Below are positions 37,496-54,648 of a DNA stretch of 64,000 bases, piece by piece. The translations under genes and the position numbers were made by a program. Every line of letters begins with the position of its first letter. Within the stretch, counting starts at the first letter, position 1. The notes below the pieces were generated by a model. It searched no databases and was not told the origin of the DNA. It saw only the letters and a list, made by a program, of their open reading frames with translations. The DNA is taken from NCBI GenBank assembly GCA_034435835.1, contig DAOTWF010000002.1, positions 64,395-128,394 on the forward strand, written 5' to 3'. Origin of the DNA: Dehalococcoidia bacterium (GTDB lineage Bacteria > Chloroflexota > Dehalococcoidia > GIF9 > UBA5629).

Positions 37496-38191
37496 TTATA
37501 TGCCAGCCCGAGGGATAAAGATCGCAGGAACACCCTCTTTGGGCACGAGCGCACCCACCGGGCAGATCTGCACACAGGCTAAACAGGCGTCGCAATCAGC
37601 CTCCGATAAAGGTTTGCCAGCAAAAGTGCTGACAACAGTATTAATCCCACGAAAAGCGAAATCAAGTGTCCCAGTACCTTTTTCCTGACACACCCAGACA
37701 CATTTGCCACAAAGGACACATTTATTGGGGTCATATATGAATAACCGGTGGCTGGAATCTACCGGCAGGTTCCTGGGTATTTGCTTCAACCGCCTAACCT
37801 TCAACCGCAGCTTGAGGCGAGAGGCGATCTCCTGAAGTCCACAATTCCTATTCTTGGCACAGTGAGCACAATCAAGTTGGTGATGGCTGAGTAAAAACTC
37901 AAAGGCAGCGCTCCGGAGCCGATGGACCCTAGGGGTGTTGAGATGCACCACCATCCCATCGGAGACCGGCTCGGTACAGGAGGCGACAGGCGCCTGCCTG
38001 CCTTCGATCTCTACGAAGCACAGTCGGCAGGAGGCAAAAGGGGGCACCACACCCCTAACCGCGCAAAGGTTGGGGATATAGAACCCGTTGTCGAGAGCTA
38101 CCCAGAGTATCTTTTCGCCCTTTCTTGCTTTGACCTGTACCCCATCGATATTTATAGTGACCAGCAAGAAAGTCCAACTCCTATTTGACAC
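37496..38191 (-). CDS. HoxU/NuoG-N-terminal-like iron-sulfur protein ([2Fe-2S] plus three [4Fe-4S] sites)
   Basis: 231 aa. Contains NLCAV...CRLCFVEI...C ([2Fe-2S]), HHQLDCAHCAKNRNCGLQ (His-ligated cluster), CVLCGKCVWVC and CDACLACVQICPVGA. The true start may be slightly internal (VTINIDG). Confidence 0.75.
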   Translation of the reverse strand: MSNRSWTFLLVTINIDGVQVKARKGEKILWVALDNGFYIPNLCAVRGVVPPFASCRLCFVEIEGRQAPVASCTEPVSDGMVVHLNTPRVHRLRSAAFEFLLSHHQLDCAHCAKNRNCGLQEIASRLKLRLKVRRLKQIPRNLPVDSSHRLFIYDPNKCVLCGKCVWVCQEKGTGTLDFAFRGINTVVSTFAGKPLSEADCDACLACVQICPVGALVPKEGVPAIFIPRAGI

Positions 38192-38272
38192 CTATCACGC
38201 GGGAAACTTTCACTTGTTTTAACTTGCCGCAGCACTGCAAACGCATTCTCAAAAACCCGCTTCACCTGTATT

Positions 38273-38854
38273 TTATCCCCGTCTAGACTTCAAAAACATC
38301 TCCTCTAGAAAATCTGCAATCCGGTCGACTTGGTTTGGAGAGAAACTTCTAACGCCACTTTCTATCTGCCTCCCGCTAACGATGGCTATCACATTCTTCA
38401 ACTGCACAGCGCTGCCATCTTCACTTCCCTTGCACACTTTGATCTTGGGGGCATCGCTCTGTTTGAACCCTTCAGCAAGCAGTATATCATACTCAGAACC
38501 AAGCAACCGCGCTGCCTCATTCAAAGAAAGTTCGCTTAAGGTGGGTTTGACCAATACTGCCTGTCCGGCGGAAACGATCAAAGTCGCCTCGCTGCCTGCC
38601 CGAATATGACGCCAGCTATCTTTATACGGCCTGTCAAAAGACAACTCGCGGGGAACATGTTTTATGGTCGCTACCCTGTAGCCGCGCGACTTTAAGTTCG
38701 CAATAAGAGCCTCTATTAACGTAGTCTTACCAGACTCTGATGCGCCCACTATAGCAACTATCGCAGGTGCCTGCCCAGTGATCTCAAGACTAGACATCGA
38801 CGAAACCATGAGGACGTCTGTAAGCCTTTCTCCAGGGCTCTCTTCTCGTAGCAA
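38273..38854 (-). CDS. mobB: Molybdopterin-guanine dinucleotide biosynthesis adapter MobB
   Basis: P-loop IVGASESGKTTLIEAL and RVATIKH. The start is uncertain: a TTG at 38854 with an AAGGGA RBS overlaps the upstream gene by 65 nt; alternative ATGs lie at 38809 and 38797. Confidence 0.8.
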   Translation of the reverse strand: MLREESPGERLTDVLMVSSMSSLEITGQAPAIVAIVGASESGKTTLIEALIANLKSRGYRVATIKHVPRELSFDRPYKDSWRHIRAGSEATLIVSAGQAVLVKPTLSELSLNEAARLLGSEYDILLAEGFKQSDAPKIKVCKGSEDGSAVQLKNVIAIVSGRQIESGVRSFSPNQVDRIADFLEEMFLKSRRG

Positions 38855-39257
38855 TGTAATCCCTTACCACCGCTCTGATTGCGCTCGCTGCCAGCTCCGC
38901 ACAATGATAGTTACCATCTGGCAGCCCCCCCAGCGCAGCACAGATATCCTGTCCGTCTATTCTCAGAGCCTCAGCCACATCTTTATCTTTGATCAGTTCA
39001 GTAGCCATACTTCCGCAGGCAACGGTGGCGCCGCAGCCATCTGTCCAAAACGCAACTTCAACTATCTTCGCCTCCTTCACCCTAATCCACATCTTCATTA
39101 ATTCGCCACAGCGACTCCTTACAGCAACAAAACCATCGGCGTCATCGATGCTACCTAGATTGCGAGGGTTCATCGCATGATCGATCACCGTTCCGGTATA
39201 TATTTCCCTCATTCGCGCCATCATCTGCTTTTCAAGCTCATCAAACTGGTCTCCCAT
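38790..39257 (-). CDS. NifU/IscU-like Fe-S cluster scaffold (N-terminal-domain type)
   Basis: Start placed at the ATG at 39257 behind GGAGGAG. Cysteine ligands lie in RSRCGELM, TDGCGATVACGS and YHCAELAA. Confidence 0.75.
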   Translation of the reverse strand: MGDQFDELEKQMMARMREIYTGTVIDHAMNPRNLGSIDDADGFVAVRSRCGELMKMWIRVKEAKIVEVAFWTDGCGATVACGSMATELIKDKDVAEALRIDGQDICAALGGLPDGNYHCAELAASAIRAVVRDYIATRREPWRKAYRRPHGFVDV

Positions 39258-39490
39258 TCCAGAACTCCTCCAATCGCCCGAATTCAGGAAACAAATATGT
39301 CGCCAGCACAACGACAACAGCAGCCTAATGTAGCGCTTAGCTCACTCTATCCTTAGCATACCAACCCTGCCAGCAATACGCAACCAAATTTGAGCGGCAC
39401 CATAAAGTCACTAGCCGCGCCGACTACCATACAGTTATTCCCCTGTGTACAAAGCCAGGCGCACTATGACGTGGCGAAGTCGGTGAGATG

Positions 39491-40951
39491 CTATCTCCTG
39501 AGCGTCTTTACAACCTGCCCGTCTCTGTTTCTTAAATTGACTTCGAGCGGCATCCCGCCTGGGAGAGCATGCGTGGCACATGCCAGACAGGGGTCATACG
39601 GTCTGAAAGCCATCTCCACCATATTTAACAGTCCTTCCTTAACCTCGGGACCCTTTACAAACCCCTGAGCCGCTTTCTTTACCGAGACACAGATAGGGGC
39701 AGCATTGTGCTGGGTGGCAACGATGAGGTTTACCTTGGTGACCAGTCCGCGGTCATCAGTCTCGTAGTGATGGATCAGTGTGCCACGTGCCGCTTCCACA
39801 CAGCCAATACCTACTTTCTTCAGGCGCAGGTTCATATTGCGTATGTCTTTGCTCGTCAGGAGTGGTTCACTGGCTATACGCTGCATATCCTCAGCAGCCT
39901 GCAGTGCTTCTATTAATCTCGCCCAGTGATAAGCCAGCGTGTGATGGCTTGGTTTTCCGCCAAGCCTGTCAAACATTTCTTCATATTCTTTCTGTGCCAG
40001 AGGAGTAGCCATACCGTTGGCTACATTCAACCGAGCAAGCGGACCAACACGATACAGCGAGGTTTTCTCTCCCTCTATTAGCCCATTCCAGCCCAGTTTC
40101 CTGAGATGAGTCAATCTGATATATGTCCATGGCTCAACCCATTCGCCTATATACTCAATATAGTCCTTCGGGTCAAACAATGCATACTGGTCGCCCTTGG
40201 GGTCGGTAACCCGTAATTTACCTTCGTAGAAATTGACCCTGTTGTTGGCATCCACCAGACCCATGTCGTAAATGTGCAGCTTGTAAGCATCATTCAGAAT
40301 CAGATCAAGGTACTTTTTCTCACCGAGGACAGCCTCTTTGAACAGCTTCAAGGTGAACTGAGCAAACTCCACAGAATCATTGGCTATGTCCCGAATCCAC
40401 TTCCTCTCCTCCTCGGTAACACCTCTGGGTACTCCACCAGGTAATCCCCCCTCGGGGTGGGGTGCTTTACTGCTAACAAGACGTATGATGTCCCGGCAGC
40501 GTTTCCTTATATCAATCACCTTCTTGCCGATGTCCAACCCTACTCTCCCGATGACTCCCAAGATGTTTCTAACCGCCGGGTCGGCATCCGGCCCGACCAC
40601 GAAGTCAGGTGCTGAAAGGAAAAAAAAGTGGATATAATGATCTTCGACCATGAAAGCGTTATAGTGCAGCTGCCTCACTAGCTTCGCTGCTGGCGTCGGT
40701 TCCACATTATAGACGTCATCAACTGCCTTGGTGGACGCCATATTGTGAGGAGTGGGGCAAACGCCGCAGATATTCGGGGTAATACGTGGCATTTCCTCCA
40801 CAGGCCTGCCAACGCAGAATCTTTCAAAACCCCTCAACTCCACCACCTGCCAGTAAGCATCCTCCACATTACCCTTGTTATCCAGAAAAATCTCTATCTT
40901 GCCGTGTCCTTCCAGTCTTGTAATCGGGTTTATGCTTATGTTCTTTGCCAT
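39491..40951 (-). CDS. [NiFe] hydrogenase large subunit, Mvh/Vhu-like (group 3c-like)
   Basis: 486 aa. N-terminal RLEGHGKIEIFL and CGVCPTPH. C-terminal DPCLACATHA followed by a cleavable-type extension of about 24 aa. Confidence 0.88.
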   Translation of the reverse strand: MAKNISINPITRLEGHGKIEIFLDNKGNVEDAYWQVVELRGFERFCVGRPVEEMPRITPNICGVCPTPHNMASTKAVDDVYNVEPTPAAKLVRQLHYNAFMVEDHYIHFFFLSAPDFVVGPDADPAVRNILGVIGRVGLDIGKKVIDIRKRCRDIIRLVSSKAPHPEGGLPGGVPRGVTEEERKWIRDIANDSVEFAQFTLKLFKEAVLGEKKYLDLILNDAYKLHIYDMGLVDANNRVNFYEGKLRVTDPKGDQYALFDPKDYIEYIGEWVEPWTYIRLTHLRKLGWNGLIEGEKTSLYRVGPLARLNVANGMATPLAQKEYEEMFDRLGGKPSHHTLAYHWARLIEALQAAEDMQRIASEPLLTSKDIRNMNLRLKKVGIGCVEAARGTLIHHYETDDRGLVTKVNLIVATQHNAAPICVSVKKAAQGFVKGPEVKEGLLNMVEMAFRPYDPCLACATHALPGGMPLEVNLRNRDGQVVKTLRR

Positions 40952-40975
40952 TTCTCCCTGCTCCTCGTAGTTTCG

Positions 40976-41941
40976 TTACGTTCTTTTTCGCACCAAAGCC
41001 GAAACAGGTGCCGAAAAACGATAAAGGTAGCCCGTCAGATCGTCCAGCTTCTCTACCAGCTCCCTGAACTGTTTCTCGTCCTCAACATCGAGCATGGAGG
41101 CCAGTGCAGAAATGAACTTCGATCCGGCATCTTTCACTCCCTCCACCGGACCAAAACAACCACGACATGGTATGTTTATTTTCATACAGACGTCTCCACA
41201 CCCGGAGCGAGTAGCTGGTCCCAAGCAGAGTATTCCCTGTGCCAAAAAACAGGTATCAGGGTTAGCCTCAACTTCGTGGATTCGCTTAACATCCTTCAAT
41301 GCAATCCTTGGGGGCTTTGTCTTGTTCCGCTCACAGGTGTCACACAGGGCTTTGTGCGGGGCAAGAGTCGAGCCCCTTGGCGGCAGCTTACCAGCAAGAA
41401 CCGCATTTACTGCGCTAGCTATGAGGTCTGGTGGCGGTGGGCACCCCGGAAGGTAGTAGTCAACATCGATAATTTGGTTAAGCACATAGACCTGCTCATA
41501 GAACTCGGGCAGTGTCAACTCTTTACCGTCTACCCTACACTTCGGCTGGGGGTAATTCCCTTTCGGGTTCACCACAGTGGGCGCATCCCGATATACCCAG
41601 TTGAATATATCCTCCTTTGTGGTGAAGTTCGCCAGCCCGGGCGTACCCCCAAAACAGGCACAGGCGCCAAAAGCGAGAACTAACTGTGACTTCTGCCTCA
41701 GCAGCCTTGCCACCTCTTCATGGTCAGAGTTTCTGACATGCCCGTTGATTATACTGAGTGCAATCTCTTTGTCTTTCATGCCTTCGGCATGGTGATACTT
41801 GAAGTCCATAGCCACGGGCCAGAGGACAAACTCCACCGCATCGGCTACCTGTAGAACAGCCTCATTCAAATCAACAACAGCCTCGTCGCAGCCACCACAT
41901 CCGCCCAACCAGCAAATTGCAATTTTTGGTTTGGTTGCCAT
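40976..41941 (-). CDS. [NiFe] hydrogenase small subunit, MvhG-like
   Basis: 321 aa. Proximal cluster ICWLGGCGGCDE, and distal clusters CDTCE... and CLGPATRSGCGDVC...CRGCFGP. Confidence 0.85.
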   Translation of the reverse strand: MATKPKIAICWLGGCGGCDEAVVDLNEAVLQVADAVEFVLWPVAMDFKYHHAEGMKDKEIALSIINGHVRNSDHEEVARLLRQKSQLVLAFGACACFGGTPGLANFTTKEDIFNWVYRDAPTVVNPKGNYPQPKCRVDGKELTLPEFYEQVYVLNQIIDVDYYLPGCPPPPDLIASAVNAVLAGKLPPRGSTLAPHKALCDTCERNKTKPPRIALKDVKRIHEVEANPDTCFLAQGILCLGPATRSGCGDVCMKINIPCRGCFGPVEGVKDAGSKFISALASMLDVEDEKQFRELVEKLDDLTGYLYRFSAPVSALVRKRT

Positions 41942-41959
41942 CTCTACTCCTCTTTGTAT

Positions 41960-42403
41960 TTATTTCTTCGCTCTGGCACCAGCCATCTCTCGGCTAGGCA
42001 ATCGTATGCGCTTCACTGGACCAAGCCTGCGTAGGGTCTCACTCATCTCCCTAACATAATTCGGTATTTGCTTCCCTTCAGGGTCTGTAGACAACACTAT
42101 ATGCACCCGCTCTGGCTCAATGCCATAGGAACTGAGAACCTTACGCAACAGGTGGACACGCTTTCTGGCTTCGAAATTGCCATCCTGGTAATGACAGTCC
42201 CCCTCAGGACAGCCCAGAATGAGCACACCATCAGCTCCACTCTTGAAGGCATCGATGATGTGCGCGGCATCTACCTTACCACTGCATATTATTGGTATCC
42301 AGTTCTTTATCTGAGCGGCGAGCTCAGCCTCGTCCCCCAAATAGCCCCAGCTGAATTTGCAGGAAAAACATACTAACTTTGGATCAAAGTTGCTCATATT
42401 CAT
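41960..42403 (-). CDS. MvhD-like hydrogenase iron-sulfur subunit
   Basis: 147 aa. Contains VCFSCKFSWGY, ICSGKVD and GADGVLILGCPEGDCHYQDGN, the MvhD/FlpD family pattern. Confidence 0.85.
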   Translation of the reverse strand: MNMSNFDPKLVCFSCKFSWGYLGDEAELAAQIKNWIPIICSGKVDAAHIIDAFKSGADGVLILGCPEGDCHYQDGNFEARKRVHLLRKVLSSYGIEPERVHIVLSTDPEGKQIPNYVREMSETLRRLGPVKRIRLPSREMAGARAKK

Positions 42404-42415
42404 CCTCCTGATTTA

Positions 42416-44206
42416 CTATAAAGAAGCATAGACTCTGTCAATTCTCTCATAGGTAGCATCGTCGACCATCTTCCTTGCGTCCGAGGGACAAGCAGCTACA
42501 CACATGCCACACGACTTACAGCGGAACATATCGGTAGTAGAGACGATCTTCCCTTCCCGTTCCACCAGATGCGCCGACTCATAGTTGCAGGAGTATACGC
42601 AAATCCCGCACCCGCTGCATCTCTCCTCATCGACTTCGACAGAATAGAGCGACTTTTCAAAGCCGATGGAGATACACGCTTTACAGGACACACAGGGACC
42701 ACAAGTGGCACACCGCCTCGCCTCCTCTATGGCCTCCTCAAGCGTCAGTCCCCTTTCAAACAACTGAAAATGCATTCTTTGCTCCGGTGGTATCCATACC
42801 ACCTCGGTCGGCGGCTTATAACGGGATCGCAGCGGAATATCGAACTTCTCATAATCCCGCCTTCTGCCCTCGGTCATATTGAGACCCCTGATATACCGAT
42901 GGATTGATTCCGCAGCTTCCATACCTTCTCTCATCGCTTCCACCATGAACCCTATCCTGCGGACATCACCGCCGATGTAGACATCAGGGAACTTGAGGCT
43001 CTGCAACGTATGGGGGTCCACAGCCAGCCTGCCCCGCTCATCAAGTAAATTTTCGTTCTCCAGTATTACCCTATCAGGCCCCTGTCCTATAGTGATTATC
43101 AGCACATCACCGCTCATTTCTACGGTATCCGACAGGTCAAATTTGGGGTTGAATCCCTGGTCATCAAACACACATGTACACTTGGGAGAGATTATCTTCT
43201 TGAACCTTCCAGCTTCCCCGATAATTTTTTGCACACCGCGCGAATAGACAATCTGGATGCCCTCCTCCCATGCACCCCTGATCTCCTCCTCATCGGCAGG
43301 AATACCATCCCTAGAGCTCTTATCCTCACACTCCAGACACACCATGGTTACCTCACCACCAAGACGTCTCGCCGACCGGGCGACGTCAAAGGCCACATTC
43401 CCCCCACCGATAACGATCACCTTTCTATACTTGAAATAGTCCGGCTCTATGTTCCCGTGGCTAATCTCATAAAGTAGCGTATGCCCGTACAGCACACCGG
43501 ACAGATCCTGTCCTTCCACTACCTTGCCATCGAAGGTTAACACCCGGGGGTAAGGGGTGCCTTTTGCCAAGAAGATAGCCTTATATCCCTGCATTCTCAA
43601 TCTTTCAAATGTGAGCTTGCCCTTGCCCACTTCAGCATTAAACTTAATATCTATGCCAGCAATCCTCACTAAGTTGTCGAGCGTGGTTCTCAGGACATCA
43701 TCGGGTAAACGGTAGTCCGGTATAAGCCATAGCGCCCCACCGAGTCTGTTCGACGCTTCAAAGATCGTCGGCCTGTATCCCTTCTTTGCCAGATAGTAAG
43801 CACACATCAGCCCGCTGGGGCCACCGCCTATGATGGCAATATTCTCCTTATCCTTGACTACGTTCAGCTCCTCTTTCTGATTCAGATAGTCAGTATAGTA
43901 ATCAGAGAGAAACCTCTTGAGTAGTCTCCGCCTGATAGACCCGCCTTTGGTCTTGTAGTTACACTCCAGCTCACAAAGCCCGCAGATATAGCCGCAGATG
44001 TTAAAGAAAGGGTTCTTTTCGTAAAGATAATCACCTATTTGGACGATGCCTTCCTTCGCCCTATCGATATCACGGGGCAGCAAAGAGATAAGCACATTCG
44101 TCCGCTGGATATCTTCGTTAATGGGACACCGTATCTGACAGGGGGGTAACAGTTGCTTCACTGCCTCCTCGACATGAGCCCCACCAGTCGTAACCGTTTG
44201 CCACAT
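42416..44206 (-). CDS. GltD/NfnB-like NAD(P)H-FAD oxidoreductase with C-terminal 2x[4Fe-4S] ferredoxin domain; first gene of the Mvh-type operon
   Basis: 596 aa. RBS AAAGGAGG. N-terminal Cys region (CQIRCP..., CGYICGLCELEC). Rossmann IAIIGGGPSGLMCAYYLAKKGY, then GGALWLIPDYRLP. Second Rossmann VIVIGGGNVAFDVARSA. C-terminal CATCGPCVSCKAC, CSGCGICVYSC and CKSCGMCVAACP. Confidence 0.8.
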   Translation of the reverse strand: MWQTVTTGGAHVEEAVKQLLPPCQIRCPINEDIQRTNVLISLLPRDIDRAKEGIVQIGDYLYEKNPFFNICGYICGLCELECNYKTKGGSIRRRLLKRFLSDYYTDYLNQKEELNVVKDKENIAIIGGGPSGLMCAYYLAKKGYRPTIFEASNRLGGALWLIPDYRLPDDVLRTTLDNLVRIAGIDIKFNAEVGKGKLTFERLRMQGYKAIFLAKGTPYPRVLTFDGKVVEGQDLSGVLYGHTLLYEISHGNIEPDYFKYRKVIVIGGGNVAFDVARSARRLGGEVTMVCLECEDKSSRDGIPADEEEIRGAWEEGIQIVYSRGVQKIIGEAGRFKKIISPKCTCVFDDQGFNPKFDLSDTVEMSGDVLIITIGQGPDRVILENENLLDERGRLAVDPHTLQSLKFPDVYIGGDVRRIGFMVEAMREGMEAAESIHRYIRGLNMTEGRRRDYEKFDIPLRSRYKPPTEVVWIPPEQRMHFQLFERGLTLEEAIEEARRCATCGPCVSCKACISIGFEKSLYSVEVDEERCSGCGICVYSCNYESAHLVEREGKIVSTTDMFRCKSCGMCVAACPSDARKMVDDATYERIDRVYASL

Positions 44207-44419
44207 AGTCAGCCTCCTTTAATTTTCAGATATTTCAACCGCCAGAAAACAGGCAAGGCCAAAATATATTACACAATCAAACCCTGACTATGCAAGATAC
44301 AGCGTTGTGAACAATAACGTAGAACTGCAGATAAGAAGAGTTTTGAGCCGTAACGGCAGTATCCTCGCTCCTGCTCAGGCGCAGACAAACTGAAGCCAGA
44401 ACAACCTACGAAGTCTCGG

Positions 44420-45886
44420 TCATCTTGTCAATTCACTCAAAACCGCACCATCTACGGAAACAAGCTGCACCACAAAAGGCATCTGCCCCAGGGCATGGGT
44501 CGAACAAGAAAGACACGGGTCATAACAACGGATAGCCACCTCGATTCGGTTAAGGATACCTTCAGTGACCTTGCCATTCTTTATGAACTCTTTAGCCACT
44601 TCATATACTGCCTTGTTCATCGCCCAGTTATTGTTCCCCGTAGCTACAATAAGGTTGACCTTTAGAATTTTGCCAGTATCGTCCACCCAGTAGTGATGGA
44701 AAAGAGTGCCACGTGGCGCTTCGATAACCCCCACACCCTGCTCATTATATTTGTCTGAGCCTACGATCAAGTCTGTAGCGCAAATATCCTTGTCCTCAAG
44801 TAGCTGCTGGGCCCTTTCCAAAGCATAAAGCAGTTCAATAAGCCGCGCATAGTGATAATACAGGGATCCCTCAACGATGCCGTTCTTACCCAACTGCTTG
44901 AAGTTTCTAAACTCAGATTGAGCGCGATATGTAGAGATCGCTTCGCAGACGTTCAAACGTGCCAATGGACCTGTTCTGTAGACGCCTTTAGGATAGCCAT
45001 GCTTCTTATAGAAGGGGAACTTAAGATACGACCAGTCTTCTATATATTCGGCAACTATCTCGAGGTAACAGGCGGGGTCAAACTGCTCTTCAAGAACCTT
45101 TCCCTCCGCATCCAACAGCCTCAATCTACCATCATAAAGCTCTAGGTTGTTGTCTTTATCTACCAGGCCAAGATAGCCAGTGGGGAAACTGGCGCAAGTG
45201 CAGGCTAAGTCCCTGTTTCTGTCATAGTATTCTTTGATTACAGCTATAGCTGTTTCGGCATCAGCTATCGCCTGGTCAACCTGTCTAAGAAAGCGGTCAC
45301 GTTCAGTGGGTGAAAATGCCGTATTCATTCCGCCGGGCACTGCACCATTGGGGTGAACCTTCTTCCCGCCGATCGCCTGGATGATTGCCTGCCCGAAGCC
45401 ACGAAGCCTTACACCTTTAACCGCAAGCTCGGGGTTTGCCTCGATCAACCCCACAACATTCCGTTTTGCCGGATCAGAGTCTAGCCCCAAAAGTAGATCC
45501 GGGCTGGCAAGGTGGAAGAAATGGAGGGCATGTGATTGAATATACTGCCCCATGTGCATCAGCTCACGAAGCAGCTTCGCTGGACGGGTCAGTTCCACGC
45601 CGAGAATGGCATCACAGGCTTTGGCAGAAGCCAAATGGTGGCTCACCGGACAGATACCACAGATCCTAGGAGTGATGACAGGCATCTCCCAGAATACCCT
45701 GCCTTCACAGAACTTCTCAAAACCACGGAATTGAGTTACATGGAACCGGGCGTCGGTAACATTGCCGGCGTCATCGAGATGAATGGTCACTTTCCCGTGA
45801 CCCTCCAGCCTGGTTACCGGATTTATCTCGATGGTTTTACCAGCAGTAGCAACTCCGCTGGCTCTTCCTGCAACTTTGGTAGTCAT
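44420..45886 (-). CDS. hoxH: [NiFe] hydrogenase large subunit, HoxH-like (group 3d-like)
   Basis: 488 aa. Contains [25 protein letters not shown], and C-terminal [10 protein letters not shown] plus an extension. Confidence 0.88.
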
Positions 45887-45898
45887 GTCTCACCCCTT

Positions 45899-46435
45899 TT
45901 AATCGAAACGCATCATATCGCTGGGTAAAACGGGTATCCTGCCCTCCAGCAGCTCCTTTAGAGCATAGAGGATCACCTTGGCATCTGGCGGACACCCCGG
46001 TACATAACAATCTACTTTTACCACATGGTTCACGGGCTTCACCTGATCCAGCAATGCCGGCACGCCTGGGGGACGCGGTATCTTCCCCTCATAGTTACTT
46101 TCAGCCTCGATATAGGCACGCCTCAACACGTCATCTTTGTCAAATGTACTACGCATGCCACAGACACCGCCAAAACAAGCGCAATCGCCCCATGCCATCA
46201 AAATCTTGCAATTAGCCCGCAGCTCCTTCAAAACTTCTTCTTCCTCGGTATTACCCACAGAGCCCTCCACTATGCCCACATCAACCGGTGAAAACTCCTT
46301 GACATCCGTAATAGGGCTCCGGGTGAATTCCACCGCCTTGACCAGCTCCACTATTGCCTCATCGATATCTAAAAATGACATGTGACATCCAGAACAAGCT
46401 TCCAGCCAGACTGTAGCTACCTTTACTTTCGCCAT
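45899..46435 (-). CDS. hoxY: [NiFe] hydrogenase small subunit, HoxY-like
   Basis: 178 aa, the short HoxY size class. Contains VWLEACSGCHMS and GDCACFGG. Confidence 0.85.
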   Translation of the reverse strand: MAKVKVATVWLEACSGCHMSFLDIDEAIVELVKAVEFTRSPITDVKEFSPVDVGIVEGSVGNTEEEEVLKELRANCKILMAWGDCACFGGVCGMRSTFDKDDVLRRAYIEAESNYEGKIPRPPGVPALLDQVKPVNHVVKVDCYVPGCPPDAKVILYALKELLEGRIPVLPSDMMRFD

Positions 46436-46458
46436 GGATATAACTCCCTAATCCTGCA

Positions 46459-48453
46459 TTATTTTTTGAAACGCCTCTCAATCTCGGTGATAAGTTCCCA
46501 ATCAGCGCGGATCTCCTCAGGCGGCCTCACAAGCCGTGCAACACGCTTATTAACACCATCCAGAGTAACATAGGTTGCGCTAACCTCCATCCAGAGCGGT
46601 GAAGGCAATACCACGTCAGCTTGAGAAGCGATTTCCGACACAAAACTGGTTTGAACCACAAAGAACTCTACCCCATCCGGACGGGAACTCAACCCCGCCA
46701 CCTCCGCCTGGGAATCACCCAGCAACAGATACAGAGCTTTTATCGAACCGTTCTTAGACAGCTTTGAAATACTAAACTCGCCTTCATCAGCAATACCCAG
46801 ATCCCAGAGTCCAGCGCTGTTTCCACCGGGCTTCAACCACAGAGTTCTGGCACTGCGCTGCTTATCTTGACACACTGTCACTAAGTCAAAAAGCAGCGCC
46901 ACCAGCTCTGGATCCTTGTATTGTAGAATACCCTGCCCGTAGACCACAACGCATTTCCTCGCCCTGCCCAGCATGGAAGCTGCAGCCTTAAGATCATCAT
47001 GATCCAGCCCGGTGCGTTTGCATACATCCGTTGGCTTAATGTCCTTGAGGGATGTCACAAGATCTTTGATCGAAGGGGAATCAGCAGCCAGCCCCTCGTC
47101 CAAAATCACTTTTATCAGAGCCTTCAAAGCAAGAGCTTCCTTACCCTTATCAGGCCGTAACCATAACGTTGCTTGATAAGGAAAACCATTCTCCGCCGGA
47201 TCGAACACAATTAGGTTTGCCCTTCTCCGTCTGATGGCACGAACCATATACGAGCCGGCGACCGGATGGGTTTTTAGGGGATGAGCACCAACCACAAAGA
47301 TACAATCGGCGTCCAGAACCTCTTCAAGGGAAGAAATCTCCACATCCTTCAAACGCTTTTTGGCCTGGGAAGATTGTAATACTTGCCTGACAAGTCTGAA
47401 ATAATCACCGTCCAAGCTATCCACTTGCTTGCTGCCCACTGTTAGTGTAAGAAAATCCTTAAAAGCTTTAGCGGACTCGTTGCTGAGCTGACTTGAGACA
47501 ATACCGGCTATGCTGCTAGGGCCGTGGCGTGCCTTCGTCTCCCTCAGCCTTGCGGATACCAGATCTAGCGCTTCGGTCAAGGAGCAGGGCTCCAACTTGC
47601 CATTTCTCCGCTGCAAAGGAGTGAGAACACGCTTAGCAACTGCCTTCGCTGGGGTGAAACGCCCCCTATCACAGAGAAGACCACGTGGTTTTGTCAGGTC
47701 GGGACTATCGACTTTCACCACCCGATTGTCCTTAATGTATGCCCTGACCTCACATCCAATACCGCATATCGGGCAAACGCTCATCACCTGTTCACATTCT
47801 GAGACTCTGCCTTTATAGGCACTCGCTTTGGAAAAGATAGCTCCTGTGGGGCAGACCTGGAAACAAGCCCCACAAGATATACACGAAGACTCCCCTAGCG
47901 GCTGTCCTAGATCAGCGACCACCTTGTCTCTCCAGCCACGGTAACCGAAATCCAGAGTGTGTATACCGGCAAATTCGTCGCATGCCCTTATGCAACGTCC
48001 ACAAAGAATACAACGATTGTGGTCAACAACGATATACTTATTTACCGAGTCTACTGGCAGCGAGGGCCAAGATAACGGATAGCGCAAGCTGTCCATCTGG
48101 TAGTGATAAGCTAGAGCCTGCAGTTCACACTCCCCGCTTGCCACACATTGTGCACAGAGATGGTTCTTCTCAGTGAACATCAACTCGAGGATTAGACGGC
48201 GGTATTTTTCCAGCCTTTCGGAGTGGGTCTGCACTACCAGACCATCGCGTGCTGGATAGGTACACGCTGGCATAGGGCGCCTCTCCCCTTCTATCTCCAC
48301 CAAACAGAGCCTGCAAGCAGCAACATCGGTTAAGCCATCATAATGGCAAAGTGTCGGCAAATCGATACCATTCGCTCTGCAGATCTCAAGGATGGTGAGT
48401 CCCTCGCCTCCTCTAACTTGTTTACCATTGATAGTAAGAGTTATCTCAGCCAT
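46459..48453 (-). CDS. HoxU-position subunit of NuoG/FdhA-like type ([2Fe-2S], [4Fe-4S] clusters plus a truncated, apparently cofactor-less molybdopterin-oxidoreductase-like domain)
   Basis: 664 aa. Contains CHYDGL...CRLCLVEI, NHLCAQCVASGECELQ, CILCGRCIRAC, CISCGACFQVCPTGA and CPICGIGCEV. I saw no Cys/Sec active-site motif in the molybdopterin-like part. Confidence 0.8.
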   Translation of the reverse strand: MAEITLTINGKQVRGGEGLTILEICRANGIDLPTLCHYDGLTDVAACRLCLVEIEGERRPMPACTYPARDGLVVQTHSERLEKYRRLILELMFTEKNHLCAQCVASGECELQALAYHYQMDSLRYPLSWPSLPVDSVNKYIVVDHNRCILCGRCIRACDEFAGIHTLDFGYRGWRDKVVADLGQPLGESSCISCGACFQVCPTGAIFSKASAYKGRVSECEQVMSVCPICGIGCEVRAYIKDNRVVKVDSPDLTKPRGLLCDRGRFTPAKAVAKRVLTPLQRRNGKLEPCSLTEALDLVSARLRETKARHGPSSIAGIVSSQLSNESAKAFKDFLTLTVGSKQVDSLDGDYFRLVRQVLQSSQAKKRLKDVEISSLEEVLDADCIFVVGAHPLKTHPVAGSYMVRAIRRRRANLIVFDPAENGFPYQATLWLRPDKGKEALALKALIKVILDEGLAADSPSIKDLVTSLKDIKPTDVCKRTGLDHDDLKAAASMLGRARKCVVVYGQGILQYKDPELVALLFDLVTVCQDKQRSARTLWLKPGGNSAGLWDLGIADEGEFSISKLSKNGSIKALYLLLGDSQAEVAGLSSRPDGVEFFVVQTSFVSEIASQADVVLPSPLWMEVSATYVTLDGVNKRVARLVRPPEEIRADWELITEIERRFKK

Positions 48454-48455
48454 TG

Positions 48456-51400
48456 TTATTCTCCTACCTCAAGATCACATCTCAGACACCTTCCGGCTTC
48501 CCGTCGGGCTTCTTCCTCAGTAAGCGGGAGCTCGATTTCCTCAAAGCTCCGTCGCCTCTTTTCCACAGGAAGCGTTGGTGCCTCAGAACGGGGCTGCTCT
48601 TTCCATATCTCCTTCGCTACATCGATGGGCAGCTCTTCAGCAAGCTGGGCTTTGGGTTTAAGTTCATGTAGTTCTACTCTTGATGTATCCCCTCTGAAAT
48701 ACTTATCTATTGCTATGGCAGCCCTCCTGCCATCGGCGATGGCATAAATCACCATATCCGGACCCCTGACAAAGTCACCGCCAGCAAAAATGCCGGAAAT
48801 ATTGGTAGCCAGAGTATTAGGGTCAACACGAAGCCTGTCCCATTCTGTCCGCTCCAGCCGACTGTCTGGCGGTAAGAAGGAAAGGTCTGGCGCCTGTCCC
48901 ACAGCAGCAATAACAGCGTCCGCCTCAACCACGAATTCAGAACCCGGGATGGGAACCGGCCTGCGGCGCCCGCTGGCATCGACATCGCCAAGCTGCATAC
49001 GGACACACTGTAGACCGGTCACCTTCCAGTTTTCACTCAGTATCCTTACCGGGTTCACAAGGAAATTGACCTTAACCCCCTCAGCAATTGCCCCTTCATA
49101 CTCCACCTCAGACACCGGCATCTCTTCTCGTGTGCGACGGTAGTAGATATTAACCTCCTCTGCTCCCAGTCTGAGAGCGGCACGCGCTGAGTCTATAGCG
49201 ACATTTCCACCACCGATAACCGCTACCCTCCTCTCAATCTTCGTTTGCCGCCCAATCTTGACATCGCGGAGGAATGTCAGACCGTAATATAGGCCGCTCA
49301 ACCCCTCGATTTCACCCGGGATTCCCATTCGCTGACTTTTTTGTGCCCCGGCAGCGATAAACACAGCTTCATAACCGCTCTGCAAAAGGTGTCTGACTCT
49401 GAAGTTCTCGTTTATCGGCGTGCTATACCTTATTTCCACTCCCCGTTTGGCTATGTAGTCGATCTCTTGCTCGATGACCTTGCGCGGCAAACGGAACTCG
49501 GGTATAGCCACCGCTAGCATACCACCACCCACGGGCAGCGCCTCAAAGACCGTTACCCCGTATCCCATCTGCGCTAGAAAATAGGCACAGCTGAGACCTG
49601 TCGGACCAGCTCCAACTATAGCCACTTTCTGCGGCTTCGTTCTGGAGAAGGGCTGGGGCGGTGAAACCTTATCCAGATTGTCAAAATACCAGTCGGCTGC
49701 AAACCGCTTAAGTGCCCTGATTGCCATGGATGAGTCTATGTCCTTGCGCCGGCACTTGTACTCACAGGGATGGTGGCATATCCTCCCGCATATTGCTGGA
49801 AACGGGTTCCGTTCTCTAATGGTCTCCACCGCCTCCAGGTACTCCCCGGCAGCTATATGAGCAATATACTTTGGTATATTAATACCCACCGGGCAGGTGT
49901 GCTGACAGGGCGATGGAAACAGCGCCTGACAGACTGCTGCTGGACACCTCTTGTCCATAATGTGGGCTTCATATTCCTCACGGAAATGTCGTATTGTGGT
50001 GAGCACGGGATTAGGAGCTGTCTGACCTAGGCCACACAGAGAGGCTGAACTTATCATCTCTGCAAGCTCTTGAATAATTGCTAAGTCGTCTGTCGTGCCC
50101 TCACCGTTGGTTATCTTGGTCAATAGCTCCAGCATTTTGGGGACGCCGGCACGACACGGGGTACACTTGCCACATGATTCGTCCCTGGTAAACTGGAGGA
50201 AAAACTTAGCAACGTCGACCATGCAGCTGTCCTCGTCCATCACCACCAAGCCACCAGATCCCATTATTGCACCCAACGAAGTTACCGCCTCGTAGTCAAC
50301 AGGTGTGTTAATGTGCTGTGTGGGGATCACACCCCCAGAGGGACCACCTATTTGCACCGCTTTAAATCTTCTGCCCTCGGGCACACCACCACCAATATCG
50401 AAAACGATCTTCGCTAAACTGGTTCCCAGAGGCACTTCGACCAGTCCCGTGTTGTTGATCTTACCTACCAGGCTGAAAGTCTTGGTTCCTTTGCTGCGTT
50501 CTGTGCCCACACTGGTAAACCAGTCTGCTCCGTTCAATATGATTGACGGCACATTTGACCATGTCTCTACATTATTGATAGTAGTAGGCTTACCAAATAG
50601 CCCTTTGTTAGCCGGAAATGGCGGGCGCTGTCTCGGATTGCCACGCTTTCCTTCAATAGATATTAACAGTGCAGTCTCCTCACCACAGACAAAAGCACCG
50701 GCTCCAGGGAAAATGTCTATGTCAAACTCGAAGCCAGTGCCGAGGATGTTCTTACCTAAAAGACCATACTGACGAGCTTGCTCTATGGCATGACTCAGTG
50801 TTTCAATCGCTAGAGGATACTCCGCCCTTACATAGGCATAGCCCTGGCGCACGTTGCCTATAGCATAAGCACCAATCACCATACCCTCAACGACTGAGTG
50901 AGGGTTGCCTTCCAGAACCGAGCGATTCATATAGGCACCTGGATCGCCCTCATCGCCATTGCACACCACGAACTTCTCATCTCCGGGCGCGTTACGGACA
51001 AATCTCCACTTTGTCGCCGTGGGGAAACCAGCACCACCACGTCCTCTCAAACCAGCTCGTCTAATCTCCTCTATAACATCTTCAGGACTCATTTGAGTCA
51101 AAACCTTTGCTAGCGCAAAGTAGCCATCTCTAGCAATATATTCTTCGATAGACCAAGGATCGATAAAACCGTTATTGTGAAGCACTCGTCTCTCTTGAGC
51201 CGCATAAAACTTGATATCGGGATAAGCAGGAATAGTTTTGCCAGTAACAGGGTCATGGTATACAAGCCGCTCCACCACCTGCCCTTTGAGGAAATGCTCT
51301 TTTACAATCTCTACCACATCCTCAGGTTCCACCTTGGTATACAATATGTCACCAGGGTTAATTATGACTATCGGCCCCATCTCACATAGCCCGTGACAAC

Positions 51401-51635
51401 CAGTGGTTACGAGTTTTACCCTCCCCTCGATCCCATTCTCTTTTATTGCAGCTTCAAATGCCTGCGCTACACGCCCAGCCCCTGATGCTGAGCACCCGCT
51501 GGCGCGGCAAAGCCTAACCTGAATTTCAGGCGCACTGAGAATCTTAGATGAATCCCTATCCATGCGCACTTCAAAAGTGGGTAAAACCATACTTTTTATA
51601 GTTTTCAGGTCACTAATCGATGCCACTTTGATCAT
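48456..51635 (-). CDS. HoxF/NuoF-like NADH-FMN subunit fused to a complete GltD/NfnB-like NAD(P)H-FAD module
   Basis: 1059 aa in one open frame. N-terminal thioredoxin-like [2Fe-2S] (CRASGC...GCHGLC). NuoF core (GLRGRGGAGFPT, VVCNGDEGDPGAY, GAFVCGEETALL, ESCGKCTPCR). From about nt 49925 downward comes the GltD-like part (CQHTCPVG, CGRICHHPCEYKC, VAIVGAGPTGLSCAYFL, AIPEFRLP, VAVIGGGNVAIDSA), ending in RCLRCD. Confidence 0.85.
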   Translation of the reverse strand: MIKVASISDLKTIKSMVLPTFEVRMDRDSSKILSAPEIQVRLCRASGCSASGAGRVAQAFEAAIKENGIEGRVKLVTTGCHGLCEMGPIVIINPGDILYTKVEPEDVVEIVKEHFLKGQVVERLVYHDPVTGKTIPAYPDIKFYAAQERRVLHNNGFIDPWSIEEYIARDGYFALAKVLTQMSPEDVIEEIRRAGLRGRGGAGFPTATKWRFVRNAPGDEKFVVCNGDEGDPGAYMNRSVLEGNPHSVVEGMVIGAYAIGNVRQGYAYVRAEYPLAIETLSHAIEQARQYGLLGKNILGTGFEFDIDIFPGAGAFVCGEETALLISIEGKRGNPRQRPPFPANKGLFGKPTTINNVETWSNVPSIILNGADWFTSVGTERSKGTKTFSLVGKINNTGLVEVPLGTSLAKIVFDIGGGVPEGRRFKAVQIGGPSGGVIPTQHINTPVDYEAVTSLGAIMGSGGLVVMDEDSCMVDVAKFFLQFTRDESCGKCTPCRAGVPKMLELLTKITNGEGTTDDLAIIQELAEMISSASLCGLGQTAPNPVLTTIRHFREEYEAHIMDKRCPAAVCQALFPSPCQHTCPVGINIPKYIAHIAAGEYLEAVETIRERNPFPAICGRICHHPCEYKCRRKDIDSSMAIRALKRFAADWYFDNLDKVSPPQPFSRTKPQKVAIVGAGPTGLSCAYFLAQMGYGVTVFEALPVGGGMLAVAIPEFRLPRKVIEQEIDYIAKRGVEIRYSTPINENFRVRHLLQSGYEAVFIAAGAQKSQRMGIPGEIEGLSGLYYGLTFLRDVKIGRQTKIERRVAVIGGGNVAIDSARAALRLGAEEVNIYYRRTREEMPVSEVEYEGAIAEGVKVNFLVNPVRILSENWKVTGLQCVRMQLGDVDASGRRRPVPIPGSEFVVEADAVIAAVGQAPDLSFLPPDSRLERTEWDRLRVDPNTLATNISGIFAGGDFVRGPDMVIYAIADGRRAAIAIDKYFRGDTSRVELHELKPKAQLAEELPIDVAKEIWKEQPRSEAPTLPVEKRRRSFEEIELPLTEEEARREAGRCLRCDLEVGE

Positions 51636-51651
51636 TTGGCTTCCCCTTCGA

Positions 51652-52167
51652 TTATTCGTATGAACTCAATATTTCTTTAAGTTGACTTGGCTTCACCTTC
51701 CGGTGAATATCCTGACCGACCGTTATCACAGGAGCCAATCCGCATGCACCAAGGCACCTTACAGTACTCAGCGAGAACTTGCCGTCGGCAGTGATCCCTT
51801 GCAGCTCCAAGCCGAAATCTTTTCTTAAGGATTTAAGAATCCTCTCAGCTCCCTTAACATAACAGCTTGTACCGAGACAGACTTGAATGACATATTTGCC
51901 CTTGGGAACGAGGGAGAAGAAATGATAAAAGCTGACTATACCGTAAACCTCACTAAGTGGGATTTTCATCTGACTGGCAATGACCCGCAGCATTGCTGGT
52001 GGCAAATATCCCACAATACCCTGCACCTGCTGCAGCACCCGTATAATAGCACCAGCCTTACCGGAATTCTCCTCGATGACTCTGAGTATCTGCTGCCGTG
52101 TCTCAGGGTTGATAGCCTCCTCTGGCTTGACCATTGTATTAACGGTATCCGTCTTCTGCACAGTCAC
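51652..52167 (-). CDS. hoxE: HoxE/NuoE-like thioredoxin-fold [2Fe-2S] subunit
   Basis: 171 aa. Contains VCLGTSCYVKGA and VRCLGACGLAPV. Confidence 0.85.
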   Translation of the reverse strand: MTVQKTDTVNTMVKPEEAINPETRQQILRVIEENSGKAGAIIRVLQQVQGIVGYLPPAMLRVIASQMKIPLSEVYGIVSFYHFFSLVPKGKYVIQVCLGTSCYVKGAERILKSLRKDFGLELQGITADGKFSLSTVRCLGACGLAPVITVGQDIHRKVKPSQLKEILSSYE

Positions 52168-52625: not shown

Positions 52626-52832
52626 TCAACTCCTCGATAGAATAAAGCCAGCAACAAAGGCGATTGCAAGAAAGACTGCAAATATGATGGAAGCAGTCTC
52701 AATTGAAATTTTCAAAACTTTCTTTTTAGCCATAAAGTGGCGAGAGTATTCGCCATAAGTAATCAAGAAAGCCATCAGCGAGGCAACTAAGCCGAACGCA
52801 AATCCCATTATTACCAAAAAAGTGAATATCAT
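52626..52832 (-). CDS. Small two-TM membrane protein, translationally coupled to the dynamin-like gene
   Basis: 68 aa with two hydrophobic helices. Its ATG overlaps the upstream stop (ATGA). Confidence 0.5.
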   Translation of the reverse strand: MIFTFLVIMGFAFGLVASLMAFLITYGEYSRHFMAKKKVLKISIETASIIFAVFLAIAFVAGFILSRS

Positions 52833-54638: not shown

Positions 54639-54648
54639 AGAGGTCTCC

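Follow-up and report, generated by a model that had tools for sequence, protein, structure and literature searches.

To what does an Mvh-type [NiFe] hydrogenase pass its electrons when the heterodisulfide reductase (Hdr) proteins that accompany it in methanogens are not encoded alongside it? The question is raised by a four-gene cassette in a stretch of 64,000 nucleotides (nt) from contig DAOTWF010000002.1 of a Dehalococcoidia bacterium (hereafter the window, meaning the whole 64-kilobase (kb) stretch that was analysed). In this cassette, genes for an MvhD-type adaptor, an MvhG-type small subunit and a [NiFe] large subunit are preceded by a gene for an iron-sulfur flavoprotein of 596 amino acids (aa) related to NfnL (NfnB) and GltD. 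The cassette is real and conserved, and it joins an Mvh hydrogenase module to an NfnL/GltD-type NAD(P)H module through a connector consisting of MvhD and an HdrA-type ferredoxin domain, which is a new combination. The genes of the cassette and the spacer in front of it are as follows.

42416..44206, minus strand: 596-aa NfnL/GltD-like iron-sulfur flavoprotein gene (open reading frame, Pfam, NCBIfam and PDB sequence search)
41960..42403, minus strand: 147-aa MvhD/VhuD-type [2Fe-2S] adaptor gene (Pfam FlpD, E=9e-32)
40976..41941, minus strand: 321-aa MvhG-type small subunit gene (Oxidored_q6; NCBIfam VhuG, E=3e-59)
39491..40951, minus strand: 486-aa [NiFe] large subunit gene (Pfam NiFeSe_Hases / VhuA, E=6e-114)
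44207..44419, minus strand: 213-nt spacer from the upstream HydL/HoxH-like gene to the flavoprotein gene (sequence scan)

The open reading frames (ORFs), Pfam and NCBIfam agree on the gene content and order given in the original prediction, which had been made from the DNA letters and their translations. The intergenic gaps between the four genes measure 12, 18 and 24 nt, as in the 12-24 nt first reported, and the strong ribosome-binding site ascribed to the first gene is present, as one of four: a Shine-Dalgarno (SD) site of the AGGAGG or GAGGAG type stands before every cassette start (4/4), with that of the flavoprotein gene (AAAGGAGG) lying 7 nt 5' of the ATG. The upstream large-subunit gene has its stop at 44420, 213 nt from the flavoprotein gene. 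This spacer contains a weak sigma-70-like match at 44290-44263; no convincing terminator was seen in it, and the region has no more promoter- and terminator-like matches than expected from shuffled sequence. The Pfam scan of the window covered 60 of the 64 ORFs of at least 90 aa, and no HdrA-, HdrB- or HdrC-like protein was found among these 60, in agreement with the earlier statement that the window carries no hdr gene.

The cassette recurs widely. A search with the 596-aa query over about 5.8 billion proteins returned thousands of relatives, the best 120 of which are 74-95% identical to it, 596-600 aa long, and annotated as 'FAD-dependent oxidoreductase', 'GltD-like oxidoreductase/ferredoxin' or 'hypothetical'. 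A scan of GTDB with one genome per species gave 156 relatives, and the best 80 (62-95% identity) were taken as the locus set (loci with L numbers below). The hosts of these 80 are Dehalococcoidia/Chloroflexota, Acidobacteriota and Desulfobacterota (Syntrophales, Desulfomonilia, Desulfobacteraceae), with a few bins labelled otherwise. Of the 80 loci, 74 keep the complete order flavoprotein-MvhD-MvhG-MvhA and six are cut short by contig ends, so that no locus departs from it. The flavoprotein gene directly precedes mvhD in all 74 complete loci, at a median spacing of ∼30 nt, and the claim that a non-Hdr, NfnB/GltD-like flavoprotein is the partner of MvhD-MvhG-MvhA is thus borne out by gene neighbourhood. 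Identity to the window co-varies among the four proteins across loci (r=0.84-0.92). Such an arrangement is far beyond chance. The conserved unit is the four genes and is self-contained, since the flanks differ between genomes, and in many genomes the cassette stands alone (e.g. L001 and L013). The cassette can act as an independent transcription unit, because in other genomes it occurs alone or divergent to the Hyd/Hox operon that lies upstream of it here. All 80 loci are from metagenome-assembled genomes (MAGs) or single-amplified genomes (SAGs), and a second search with a Syntrophales query, together with a cluster look-up, returned MAG-derived proteins only.

Some loci carry additions to the four genes. 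In Desulfobacterota, a HycI-like endopeptidase is the fifth gene. In ∼30 Dehalococcoidia loci (L001-L004, L013-L015, L017, L021, L026, L029, L031, L033-L052 and others), the cassette is directly followed by genes for a histidine kinase (PilS-like with six transmembrane segments, or of GAF type) and a single-domain response regulator, a pair that the window and its closest relatives lack; in one protein of 724 aa (P0121), the flavoprotein is itself fused to a receiver domain. Two loci contain a second MvhD-MvhG(-MvhA) cluster, 36-44% identical, ∼2 kb downstream of the cassette and past the kinase and regulator genes (L046, 13710-14511; L050, 13702-15097), with no flavoprotein gene before it. 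A contig of 4.77 Mb carries two tandem, diverged copies of the cassette (L086, 1022-10730; 613+128+355+450 aa and 599+131+331+487 aa), followed by a HycI-like gene (176 aa). Four Syntrophales/deltaproteobacterial loci (L063, L070, L072 and L074) have an extra ORF of ∼208 aa between the flavoprotein gene and mvhD (8842-9468 in L072), widening the gap to 630-742 nt; it was considered as a further redox subunit and rejected, as its sequence is helix-turn-helix/transposase-like and it looks like an insertion. Neither Dehalococcoides mccartyi nor Dehalogenimonas has a record among the best 80 loci (at least 62% identity), and the Vhu hydrogenase of D. mccartyi is probably not the same cassette.

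The relation between the flavoprotein and MvhD can also be followed through gene fusions. An exhaustive HMMER search covered 1.84 billion representatives at 50% identity, and the nearest 150 were examined with phmmer using the window MvhD as query. In 23 of these 150, a GltD-like protein carries a fused C-terminal MvhD-like domain. Downstream of one such fusion (L085, 729 aa, 43% identity to the window flavoprotein) come MvhG-, MvhA- and HycI-like genes. These flavoprotein-MvhD fusions in distant relatives, one of which stands before MvhG-MvhA-HycI, make it very probable that the four cassette proteins form one enzyme. Fusions of ∼700 aa, with the order GltD-like/2x[4Fe-4S]/MvhD, also occur in another setting, beside genes for methylene-tetrahydrofolate reductase (MTHFR, PF02219), DUF5981 and CdhD (L087, 5001-7109; L088, 1416-3530), where the genomic context looks archaeal. 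This suggests a methylene-tetrahydrofolate (methylene-THF) or tetrahydromethanopterin (H4MPT) reductase that draws on this NAD(P)H-MvhD module and dispenses with HdrABC. The presence of the GltD-ferredoxin-MvhD unit beside methylene-THF reductase genes makes it a portable pyridine-nucleotide module.

The assignment of the hydrogenase part to the Mvh type is carried by the adaptor and the small subunit. The 147-aa MvhD matches MvhD chains in the PDB over nearly its full length (8rvu_F, 88.6 bits; 5odc_D, 83 bits) and has the conserved Cys pattern CSG...GC..GDCHY. The 321-aa small subunit aligns through residues 1-319 with positions 1-283 of the 286 in the NCBIfam model VhuG (E=3e-59), and through residues 6-315 with MvhG (5odc_E, 229.7 bits), while HydS and HoxY match residues 4-190 only (81 and 71 bits) and the sulfhydrogenase delta subunit scores 57 bits. 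It contains the proximal-cluster motifs and a C-terminal extension with eight further Cys, and is predicted to bind three [4Fe-4S] clusters, including the medial and distal ones. The large subunit has the motifs CGVC (62-65, with C62 and C65) and DPCLACATH (453-461), and a C-terminal tail that implies processing by an endopeptidase. It is about equally distant from HydL of Acetomicrobium mobile (7t2r_D, 384 bits, 41% identity), methanogen MvhA/VhuA (342-371 bits, 39-41% identity; MvhA 5odc_F, 371 bits) and HoxH (5xf9_D, 305 bits, 36% identity); the sulfhydrogenase alpha subunit scores ∼80 bits. In a neighbor-joining tree with five PDB references, the large subunits of the cassettes form a long-branched clade of their own. 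The label 'group-3c-like' in the original prediction therefore stands in part: it fits the small subunit and MvhD, while the large subunit belongs to a separate clade, with 39-41% identity to MvhA and 36-41% to HydL/HoxH. 'Mvh-type' is justified by the small subunit and MvhD, and strict membership of the large subunit in group 3c is not established.

Two other classes of soluble hydrogenase, groups 3d (Hox/HydABCSL; 5XF9, 7T2R) and 3b (sulfhydrogenase; 9NEZ, 5YXY), share with the cassette the proposed net H2 <-> NAD(P)H chemistry, but their diaphorase modules are unrelated to it, and the cassette has a long MvhG and an MvhD and lacks both the NuoE/F/G of group 3d and the AsrA/AsrB-like pair of group 3b. 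Group 3b, which the original prediction had named as the class that would speak against it, is rejected on the scores of the alpha subunit (∼80 bits, compared with 371 for MvhA and 384 for HydL) and the delta subunit (57 bits, compared with 230 for MvhG), and on the lack of genes for the beta and gamma (AsrA/AsrB-like) subunits. An identity as group 3d Hox or NiFe-HydABCSL is likewise rejected, given the long MvhG-type small subunit and the lack of Nuo-type genes in the cassette; those genes sit in the upstream operon.

The flavoprotein consists of Fer4_20 (residues 21-105), Pyr_redox_2 (123-428) and a 4Fe-4S dicluster domain (523-578). The FAD-binding Rossmann fold is marked by GGGPSG (127-132) and E150, and is followed by a second Rossmann fold of the NAD(P)H type with GGGNVA (267-272, within GGGNVAFDVAR at 267-277) and then L291-E292, where the family has the Arg-Arg pair of the 2'-phosphate site. 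Further along are a Cys5 motif (C499/502/505/508/511) and the C-terminal 2x[4Fe-4S] ferredoxin domain (C530-540 and C563-573). The segment GGALWLIPDYRLP, which had first been taken for the NAD(P)H signature, does not have this role: it comprises residues 156-168, after the first Rossmann fold and within the FAD domain, and the motif, GG..IP.(F/Y)RLP, is common to the whole GltD/DPD/NfnL family, where DPD is dihydropyrimidine dehydrogenase (alignment to 5jca_L, 9n5u_A and 1h7x_A). The nicotinamide site belongs to the second Rossmann fold.

In a PDB sequence search, the flavoprotein matches NfnL of Pyrococcus NfnI (5jca_L, 181 bits over residues 21-439) and NfnA of Thermococcus NfnABC (9n5u_A, 173 bits), with further matches to Thermotoga NfnB, DPD and GltD. 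The NfnA/StnC subunits 9bov_A and 8oh5_C are collinear with residues 20-574, including the C-terminal cluster region. An AlphaFold2 (AF2) model of the flavoprotein was used for a Foldseek search, in which the top matches are NfnA of NfnABC/Stn (∼630-655 aligned columns), followed by NfnL, Xfn, DPD and GltD; no HdrA chain is among the top 50. In a structure-based alignment, the identity to NfnL is 32%. The resemblance to HdrA is limited to residues 516-587, which match the C-terminal ferredoxin domain of HdrA, and the thioredoxin reductase (TrxR)-type FAD domain of HdrA and its inserted ferredoxin domain are both absent. When the C-terminal 2x[4Fe-4S] domain is searched alone, the best match is the polyferredoxin MvhB, with 54 bits summed over seven repeated dicluster units; among single domains, the C-terminal ferredoxin domain of HdrA matches best (5odc_A 576-634 and 9sfi_A 570-634). 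In the NCBIfam HdrA2 model, this ferredoxin domain (568-626) is directly followed by an MvhD domain (647-775), and the flavoprotein C-terminus followed by mvhD is thus collinear with the domain order of HdrA2. By these alignments, the flavoprotein is a chimera of an NfnL/GltD-type NAD(P)H-FAD-cluster module and the HdrA-type domain that neighbours MvhD.

Known systems resemble the cassette in part. MvhADG-HdrABC of methanogens (5ODC) shares the NiFe large subunit, MvhG (230 bits), MvhD (83-89 bits) and the HdrA-like C-terminal ferredoxin domain, whereas the cassette lacks HdrB, HdrC and the HdrA flavin domain, has a partner of NfnL/GltD type, and its large subunit falls in a separate clade. 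NfnA of the Bfu-type NfnABC/StnABC (9N5U, 9BOV, 8OH5) is the best whole-length match in sequence and fold (residues 20-574) and shares the Lys at the ligand position of the proximal cluster, but the flavoprotein lacks its N-terminal [2Fe-2S] and NuoG/Fdh-like domains, has no NuoF/NuoE-type bifurcating core as partner, is wired to MvhD and a [NiFe] hydrogenase, and lacks the 'YRR' motif and two cluster Cys. NfnL (NfnB), GltD and DPD domains I-III (5JCA, 4YLF, 2VDC, 1H7X) share fold and motifs over residues 21-440, whereas no NfnS/PyrK-like gene lies in or beside the cassette, a Lys replaces the Glu of NfnL, and the Cys5 motif and ferredoxin domain are extra.

GltD-type modules near MvhD have been described before, in other contexts. 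One is HdrL, a GltD-HdrA fusion whose gene neighbours mvhD in Syntrophobacter and Desulfobacterium autotrophicum (PMC2702500, PMC5947623); another is the HdrA in the MetFV-HdrABC-MvhD complex of Moorella, which contains a GltD module (PMC9430772); and a 'type III HdrA' occurs beside mvhADG in Bathyarchaeota (PMC12054007). All have a GltD-type NAD(P)H/FAD module near or fused with MvhD, as a proposed entry for pyridine nucleotides. In all of these systems, GltD is added to a complete HdrA, and HdrBC or other catalytic partners accompany it, whereas the GltD-type protein of the cassette has no HdrA flavin domain and is by itself the partner of MvhD and the hydrogenase; the NCBIfam model NF045663 matches residues 16-216 of it only. 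In a cultured organism, Syntrophobacter fumaroxidans, the annotation of Mvh1 and Mvh2 (Sfum_3535-37 and Sfum_3954-57) shows a comparable arrangement; they were assigned no function, and the hydrogenase subunits were undetected in the source study. In the limited literature searched, no account was found of an Mvh hydrogenase with an NfnL/GltD-like protein as its sole flavoprotein partner.

The residues conserved in the flavoprotein were read from an alignment of 78 orthologues from several phyla and a second alignment of 30 sequences. Twenty Cys are invariant in the 78 orthologues (23, 27, 71, 75, 78, 82, 343, 499, 502, 505, 508, 511, 530, 533, 536, 540, 563, 566, 569 and 573), as are E79, K97 and R166. 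The N-terminal cluster domain contains six of these Cys (23, 27, 71, 75, 78 and 82) and Lys97, compared with the family set of eight ligands for two [4Fe-4S] clusters. The equivalents of pig DPD Cys79 and Cys82, the first two Cys of motif 1 in the GltD family, are not present. Only 22 residues precede Cys23, and a longer N-terminus is precluded by an in-frame stop five codons 5' of the start. With the motif-1 Cys pair gone, either the distal N-terminal cluster no longer exists or it has other, unusual ligands, for which Cys71 and Cys343 are candidates. K97, which is at least 90% conserved in the 30-sequence alignment, aligns with Lys165 of Thermococcus NfnA, an unusual ligand of the FAD-proximal cluster A7, whereas bifurcating NfnL has Glu at this position (PMC12018979). 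This likeness to NfnA rather than NfnL is no more than suggestive. R166 corresponds to the FRLP-motif Arg that forms a hydrogen bond with flavin N5 in NfnL, and is equally conserved in the non-bifurcating relatives NfnA, GltD and DPD.

The second Rossmann fold bears on the choice of nucleotide. The family NADPH-binding motif 'YRR' at the end of beta-2 is replaced here by '(C/A)LE' and a 5-residue insertion, while it is kept as YYRR in the 1059-aa protein encoded in the neighbouring operon. In the orthologue alignments, conservation of E292 reaches at least 90%, and K296 and R/K299 are likewise conserved. An acidic residue at the end of beta-2 of a Rossmann fold classically favours NAD(H) over NADP(H). 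The replacement of YRR argues against NADPH specificity, and the acidic residue at this position makes NAD(H) a likelier nucleotide than NADP(H). The dinucleotide site of this fold is probably kept, and its specificity has probably changed.

We consider it somewhat probable that the cassette encodes a soluble, cytoplasmic H2:NAD(P)+ oxidoreductase of Mvh architecture, in which the NfnL/GltD-type partner forms a linear wire without bifurcation and the nucleotide is likely NAD(H). The model is drawn by analogy to NfnABC, in which the NfnL-like module of NfnA is a plain NADPH->FAD->[4Fe-4S] input wire (PMC12018979). In the proposed path, which would be reversible throughout, H2 would be oxidized at the NiFe site and the electrons would pass via the three [4Fe-4S] clusters of the MvhG-like subunit to the [2Fe-2S] cluster of MvhD, and from there enter the flavoprotein at its C-terminal, HdrA-type 2x[4Fe-4S] domain. 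They would continue via the cluster of the Cys5 motif and the N-terminal cluster(s) to FAD, from which a hydride would be transferred to NAD(P)+. The net reaction would be H2 + NAD(P)+ <-> NAD(P)H + H+, probably with NAD(H). It may run toward H2 uptake for the supply of reductant or, in fermenters and syntrophs, toward NADH-driven H2 release at low H2 pressure. The data show the gene and domain content, the family assignments, the strict conservation of the cassette, the natural flavoprotein-MvhD fusions and the lack of hdr genes among the scanned ORFs; that the proteins associate, how the clusters are ordered, which substrate is used, that electrons are not bifurcated and in which direction the enzyme works are inferred.

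Several points weigh against this linear H2:NAD(P)+ wire. The cluster that would link the FAD-proximal cluster with the remainder of the wire lacks its two motif-1 Cys ligands, and if this cluster is gone, the linear path is broken. The Lys/Glu difference at the proximal cluster is no established discriminator of bifurcation, and the authors of the structure call its meaning unclear (PMC12018979). The AF2 model is only of moderate confidence, with a predicted local distance difference test (pLDDT) score of 71 and a predicted template modelling (pTM) score of 0.60; the nicotinamide loop is remodelled, with pLDDT <50 at residues 294-302, which leaves NAD(P)H binding putative. The absence of hdr genes covers the 64-kb window, and it is possible that Hdr or other partners are encoded elsewhere in the genome. 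Finally, the enzyme is known from genes alone, and its close relatives are all uncultured.

One alternative is a flavin-based bifurcating or confurcating hydrogenase, in which FAD would be joined to the hydrogenase through MvhD and the C-terminal ferredoxin domain, to ferredoxin (Fd) through the N-terminal cluster(s), and to NAD(P)(H). A possible reaction is 2 H2 + Fd_ox + NAD(P)+ -> Fd_red + NAD(P)H, with confurcation to H2 as its reverse. In its favour, bifurcation has been proven at the FAD of NfnL, to which the flavoprotein is 32% identical, the separate N- and C-terminal cluster regions of the flavoprotein could serve two one-electron branches, and MvhD is otherwise known from bifurcating Hdr complexes. 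Enzymes of this kind are common in organisms close to the thermodynamic limit, as the hosts (syntrophs, fermenters and acetogen-like Dehalococcoidia) are. The FRLP Arg is invariant as R166, but its conservation in the non-bifurcating NfnA, GltD and DPD makes it non-discriminating, and the ligand position at the proximal cluster is Lys, as in NfnA, and not Glu, as in NfnL. The distal cluster, which is the contact for ferredoxin in NfnL, is short of two of its four Cys ligands, and there is no NfnS-like subunit, TrxR-type flavin domain or inserted ferredoxin domain of HdrA, or NuoF/NuoE core. Moreover, NAD(P)+ would need a hydride from the bifurcating flavin itself, which would be a new mechanism for an NfnL-type FAD. 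The evidence neither supports nor excludes bifurcation, and we regard it as unlikely. The words 'possibly bifurcating' in the original prediction gained no positive evidence, the closest structural analogues being the non-bifurcating NfnA of NfnABC/Stn. A stronger form of the idea, to which we give slightly less credence, is that the cassette represents an unrecognised class of bifurcating [NiFe]-hydrogenase, with an NfnL-type FAD that would receive single electrons from H2 via MvhD and split them between ferredoxin, reached through the remodelled N-terminal cluster domain, and NAD(P)+. If true, this would be a minimal four-subunit alternative to Mvh-Hdr and HydABCSL, and many 'group 3c' hydrogenases in sediment metagenome surveys would have been given the wrong partner and reaction.

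It is also conceivable, if rather doubtful, that the flavoprotein does not use a pyridine nucleotide. The acceptor could then be polysulfide or sulfur, a role reportedly once proposed for SudA, a thiol/disulfide carrier or another protein, or the flavoprotein could be a scaffold to an unlinked Hdr-like or DsrC-linked system. The loss of 'YRR' and the low model confidence of the loop with the 5-residue insertion are consistent with such an acceptor, but GGGNVAxDxAR, the acidic beta-2 residue, K296 and R/K299 are kept and point to a maintained dinucleotide site. As for an unlinked partner, hdr-like genes may lie outside the 64 kb of the window, GltD-like modules occur fused in HdrL and Moorella HdrA in larger Hdr complexes, and the second MvhD-MvhG clusters without flavoprotein (L046 and L050) indicate that the Mvh modules there have several partners. 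Across phyla, however, no gene for a third partner is conserved beside the cassette (HycI, the kinase and regulator, and the Hyd/Hox operon are each confined to one lineage), and the cassette travels as a self-contained four-gene unit. The possibility that the flavoprotein belongs to the upstream HydABCSL/Hox-type operon or is independent, and precedes mvhDGA incidentally, is suggested by the separation of 213 nt without a clear terminator or promoter and by the use of a GltD-like domain in that operon too. It is highly improbable and effectively refuted by the comparative data: most related loci have the cassette without that operon or divergent to it, the flavoprotein gene always stands before mvhD, and flavoprotein-MvhD fusions exist.

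Metagenome studies routinely take bacterial Mvh-type (group 3c) genes as linked to heterodisulfide reductase and bifurcating, and the papers on Dehalococcoidia that were read do so, listing 'Mvh/Hdr'. An Hdr link is probably the wrong reading for this widespread cassette, whose conserved partner is a flavoprotein of the pyridine-nucleotide type. Were H2 linked directly to NAD(H), predictions of how abundant subsurface anaerobes manage hydrogen and redox balance would change, with an H2-dependent supply of NADH or NADH-driven release of H2 at low H2 pressure. MvhD with the HdrA-type ferredoxin domain is a portable connector, which can join the GltD/NfnL module to a hydrogenase, as here, or to methylene-THF reductase in other genomes, and the four-subunit enzyme would be a tractable target for the study of what makes an NfnL-type flavin bifurcate.

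The cassette lies between the following neighbouring genes.

44420..52167, minus strand: upstream HydABCSL-type operon, outside the cassette (Pfam, NCBIfam and PDB scores)
37496-39317, minus strand: downstream genes for a 175-aa NifU-N-like protein, a 193-aa MobB-like protein (overlapping the NifU-N-like ORF) and a 231-aa HoxU/NuoG-N-terminal-like [2Fe-2S]+[4Fe-4S] protein

The upstream operon encodes a NuoE-like protein (171 aa), a NuoF-like protein (1059 aa), a NuoG/HoxU-like protein (664 aa) and the two hydrogenase subunits, a short small one (178 aa) and a large one (488 aa). It had been described as a Hox-type operon 213 bp upstream; the distance is correct, but its large subunit matches that of the bifurcating NiFe-HydABCSL of A. 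mobile (7t2r_D) with 615 bits, and by sequence the operon is of the NiFe-HydABCSL (Bfu) type rather than classical Hox. The GltD module attributed to it is present in the 1059-aa NuoF-like protein, which has an N-terminal thioredoxin-like [2Fe-2S] domain and a C-terminal GltD/NfnL-like domain (558-981) with the canonical YYRR NADPH motif, and the 664-aa NuoG-like protein carries a molybdopterin-oxidoreductase-like domain. With such a HydB-GltD fusion, the enzyme may handle NADH as well as NADPH. The pairing of the cassette with a second, GltD-bearing [NiFe] hydrogenase operon, to which attention had already been drawn, recurs: a HydABCSL/Hox-type operon adjoins the cassette, in tandem or divergently, in ∼20 Dehalococcoidia loci (L005-L008, L016, L033, L034, L038, L039, L041, L043, L046-L052, L057 and L062), which suggests that the two soluble hydrogenases are coupled in function or regulation. 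The NifU-like, MobB and HoxU-like genes downstream were considered as subunits of the cassette and rejected, being conserved in the four closest relatives (L005-L008) only.

The rest of the window, as covered by the Pfam scan, consists of housekeeping genes and of hypA and hypB, which lie on the plus strand (424-1431), 38 kb from the hydrogenase genes. Both large subunits in the window have C-terminal extensions that imply processing, and a tblastn search with two HycI-like proteins of related loci as queries gave no match to a HycI-like protease in the window. At 52829-54662 on the minus strand, adjacent ORFs (119-213 aa) give partial matches to dynamin-family GTPases and look like one dynamin-like gene split by frameshifts or stops, possibly a pseudogene or the result of sequencing errors.

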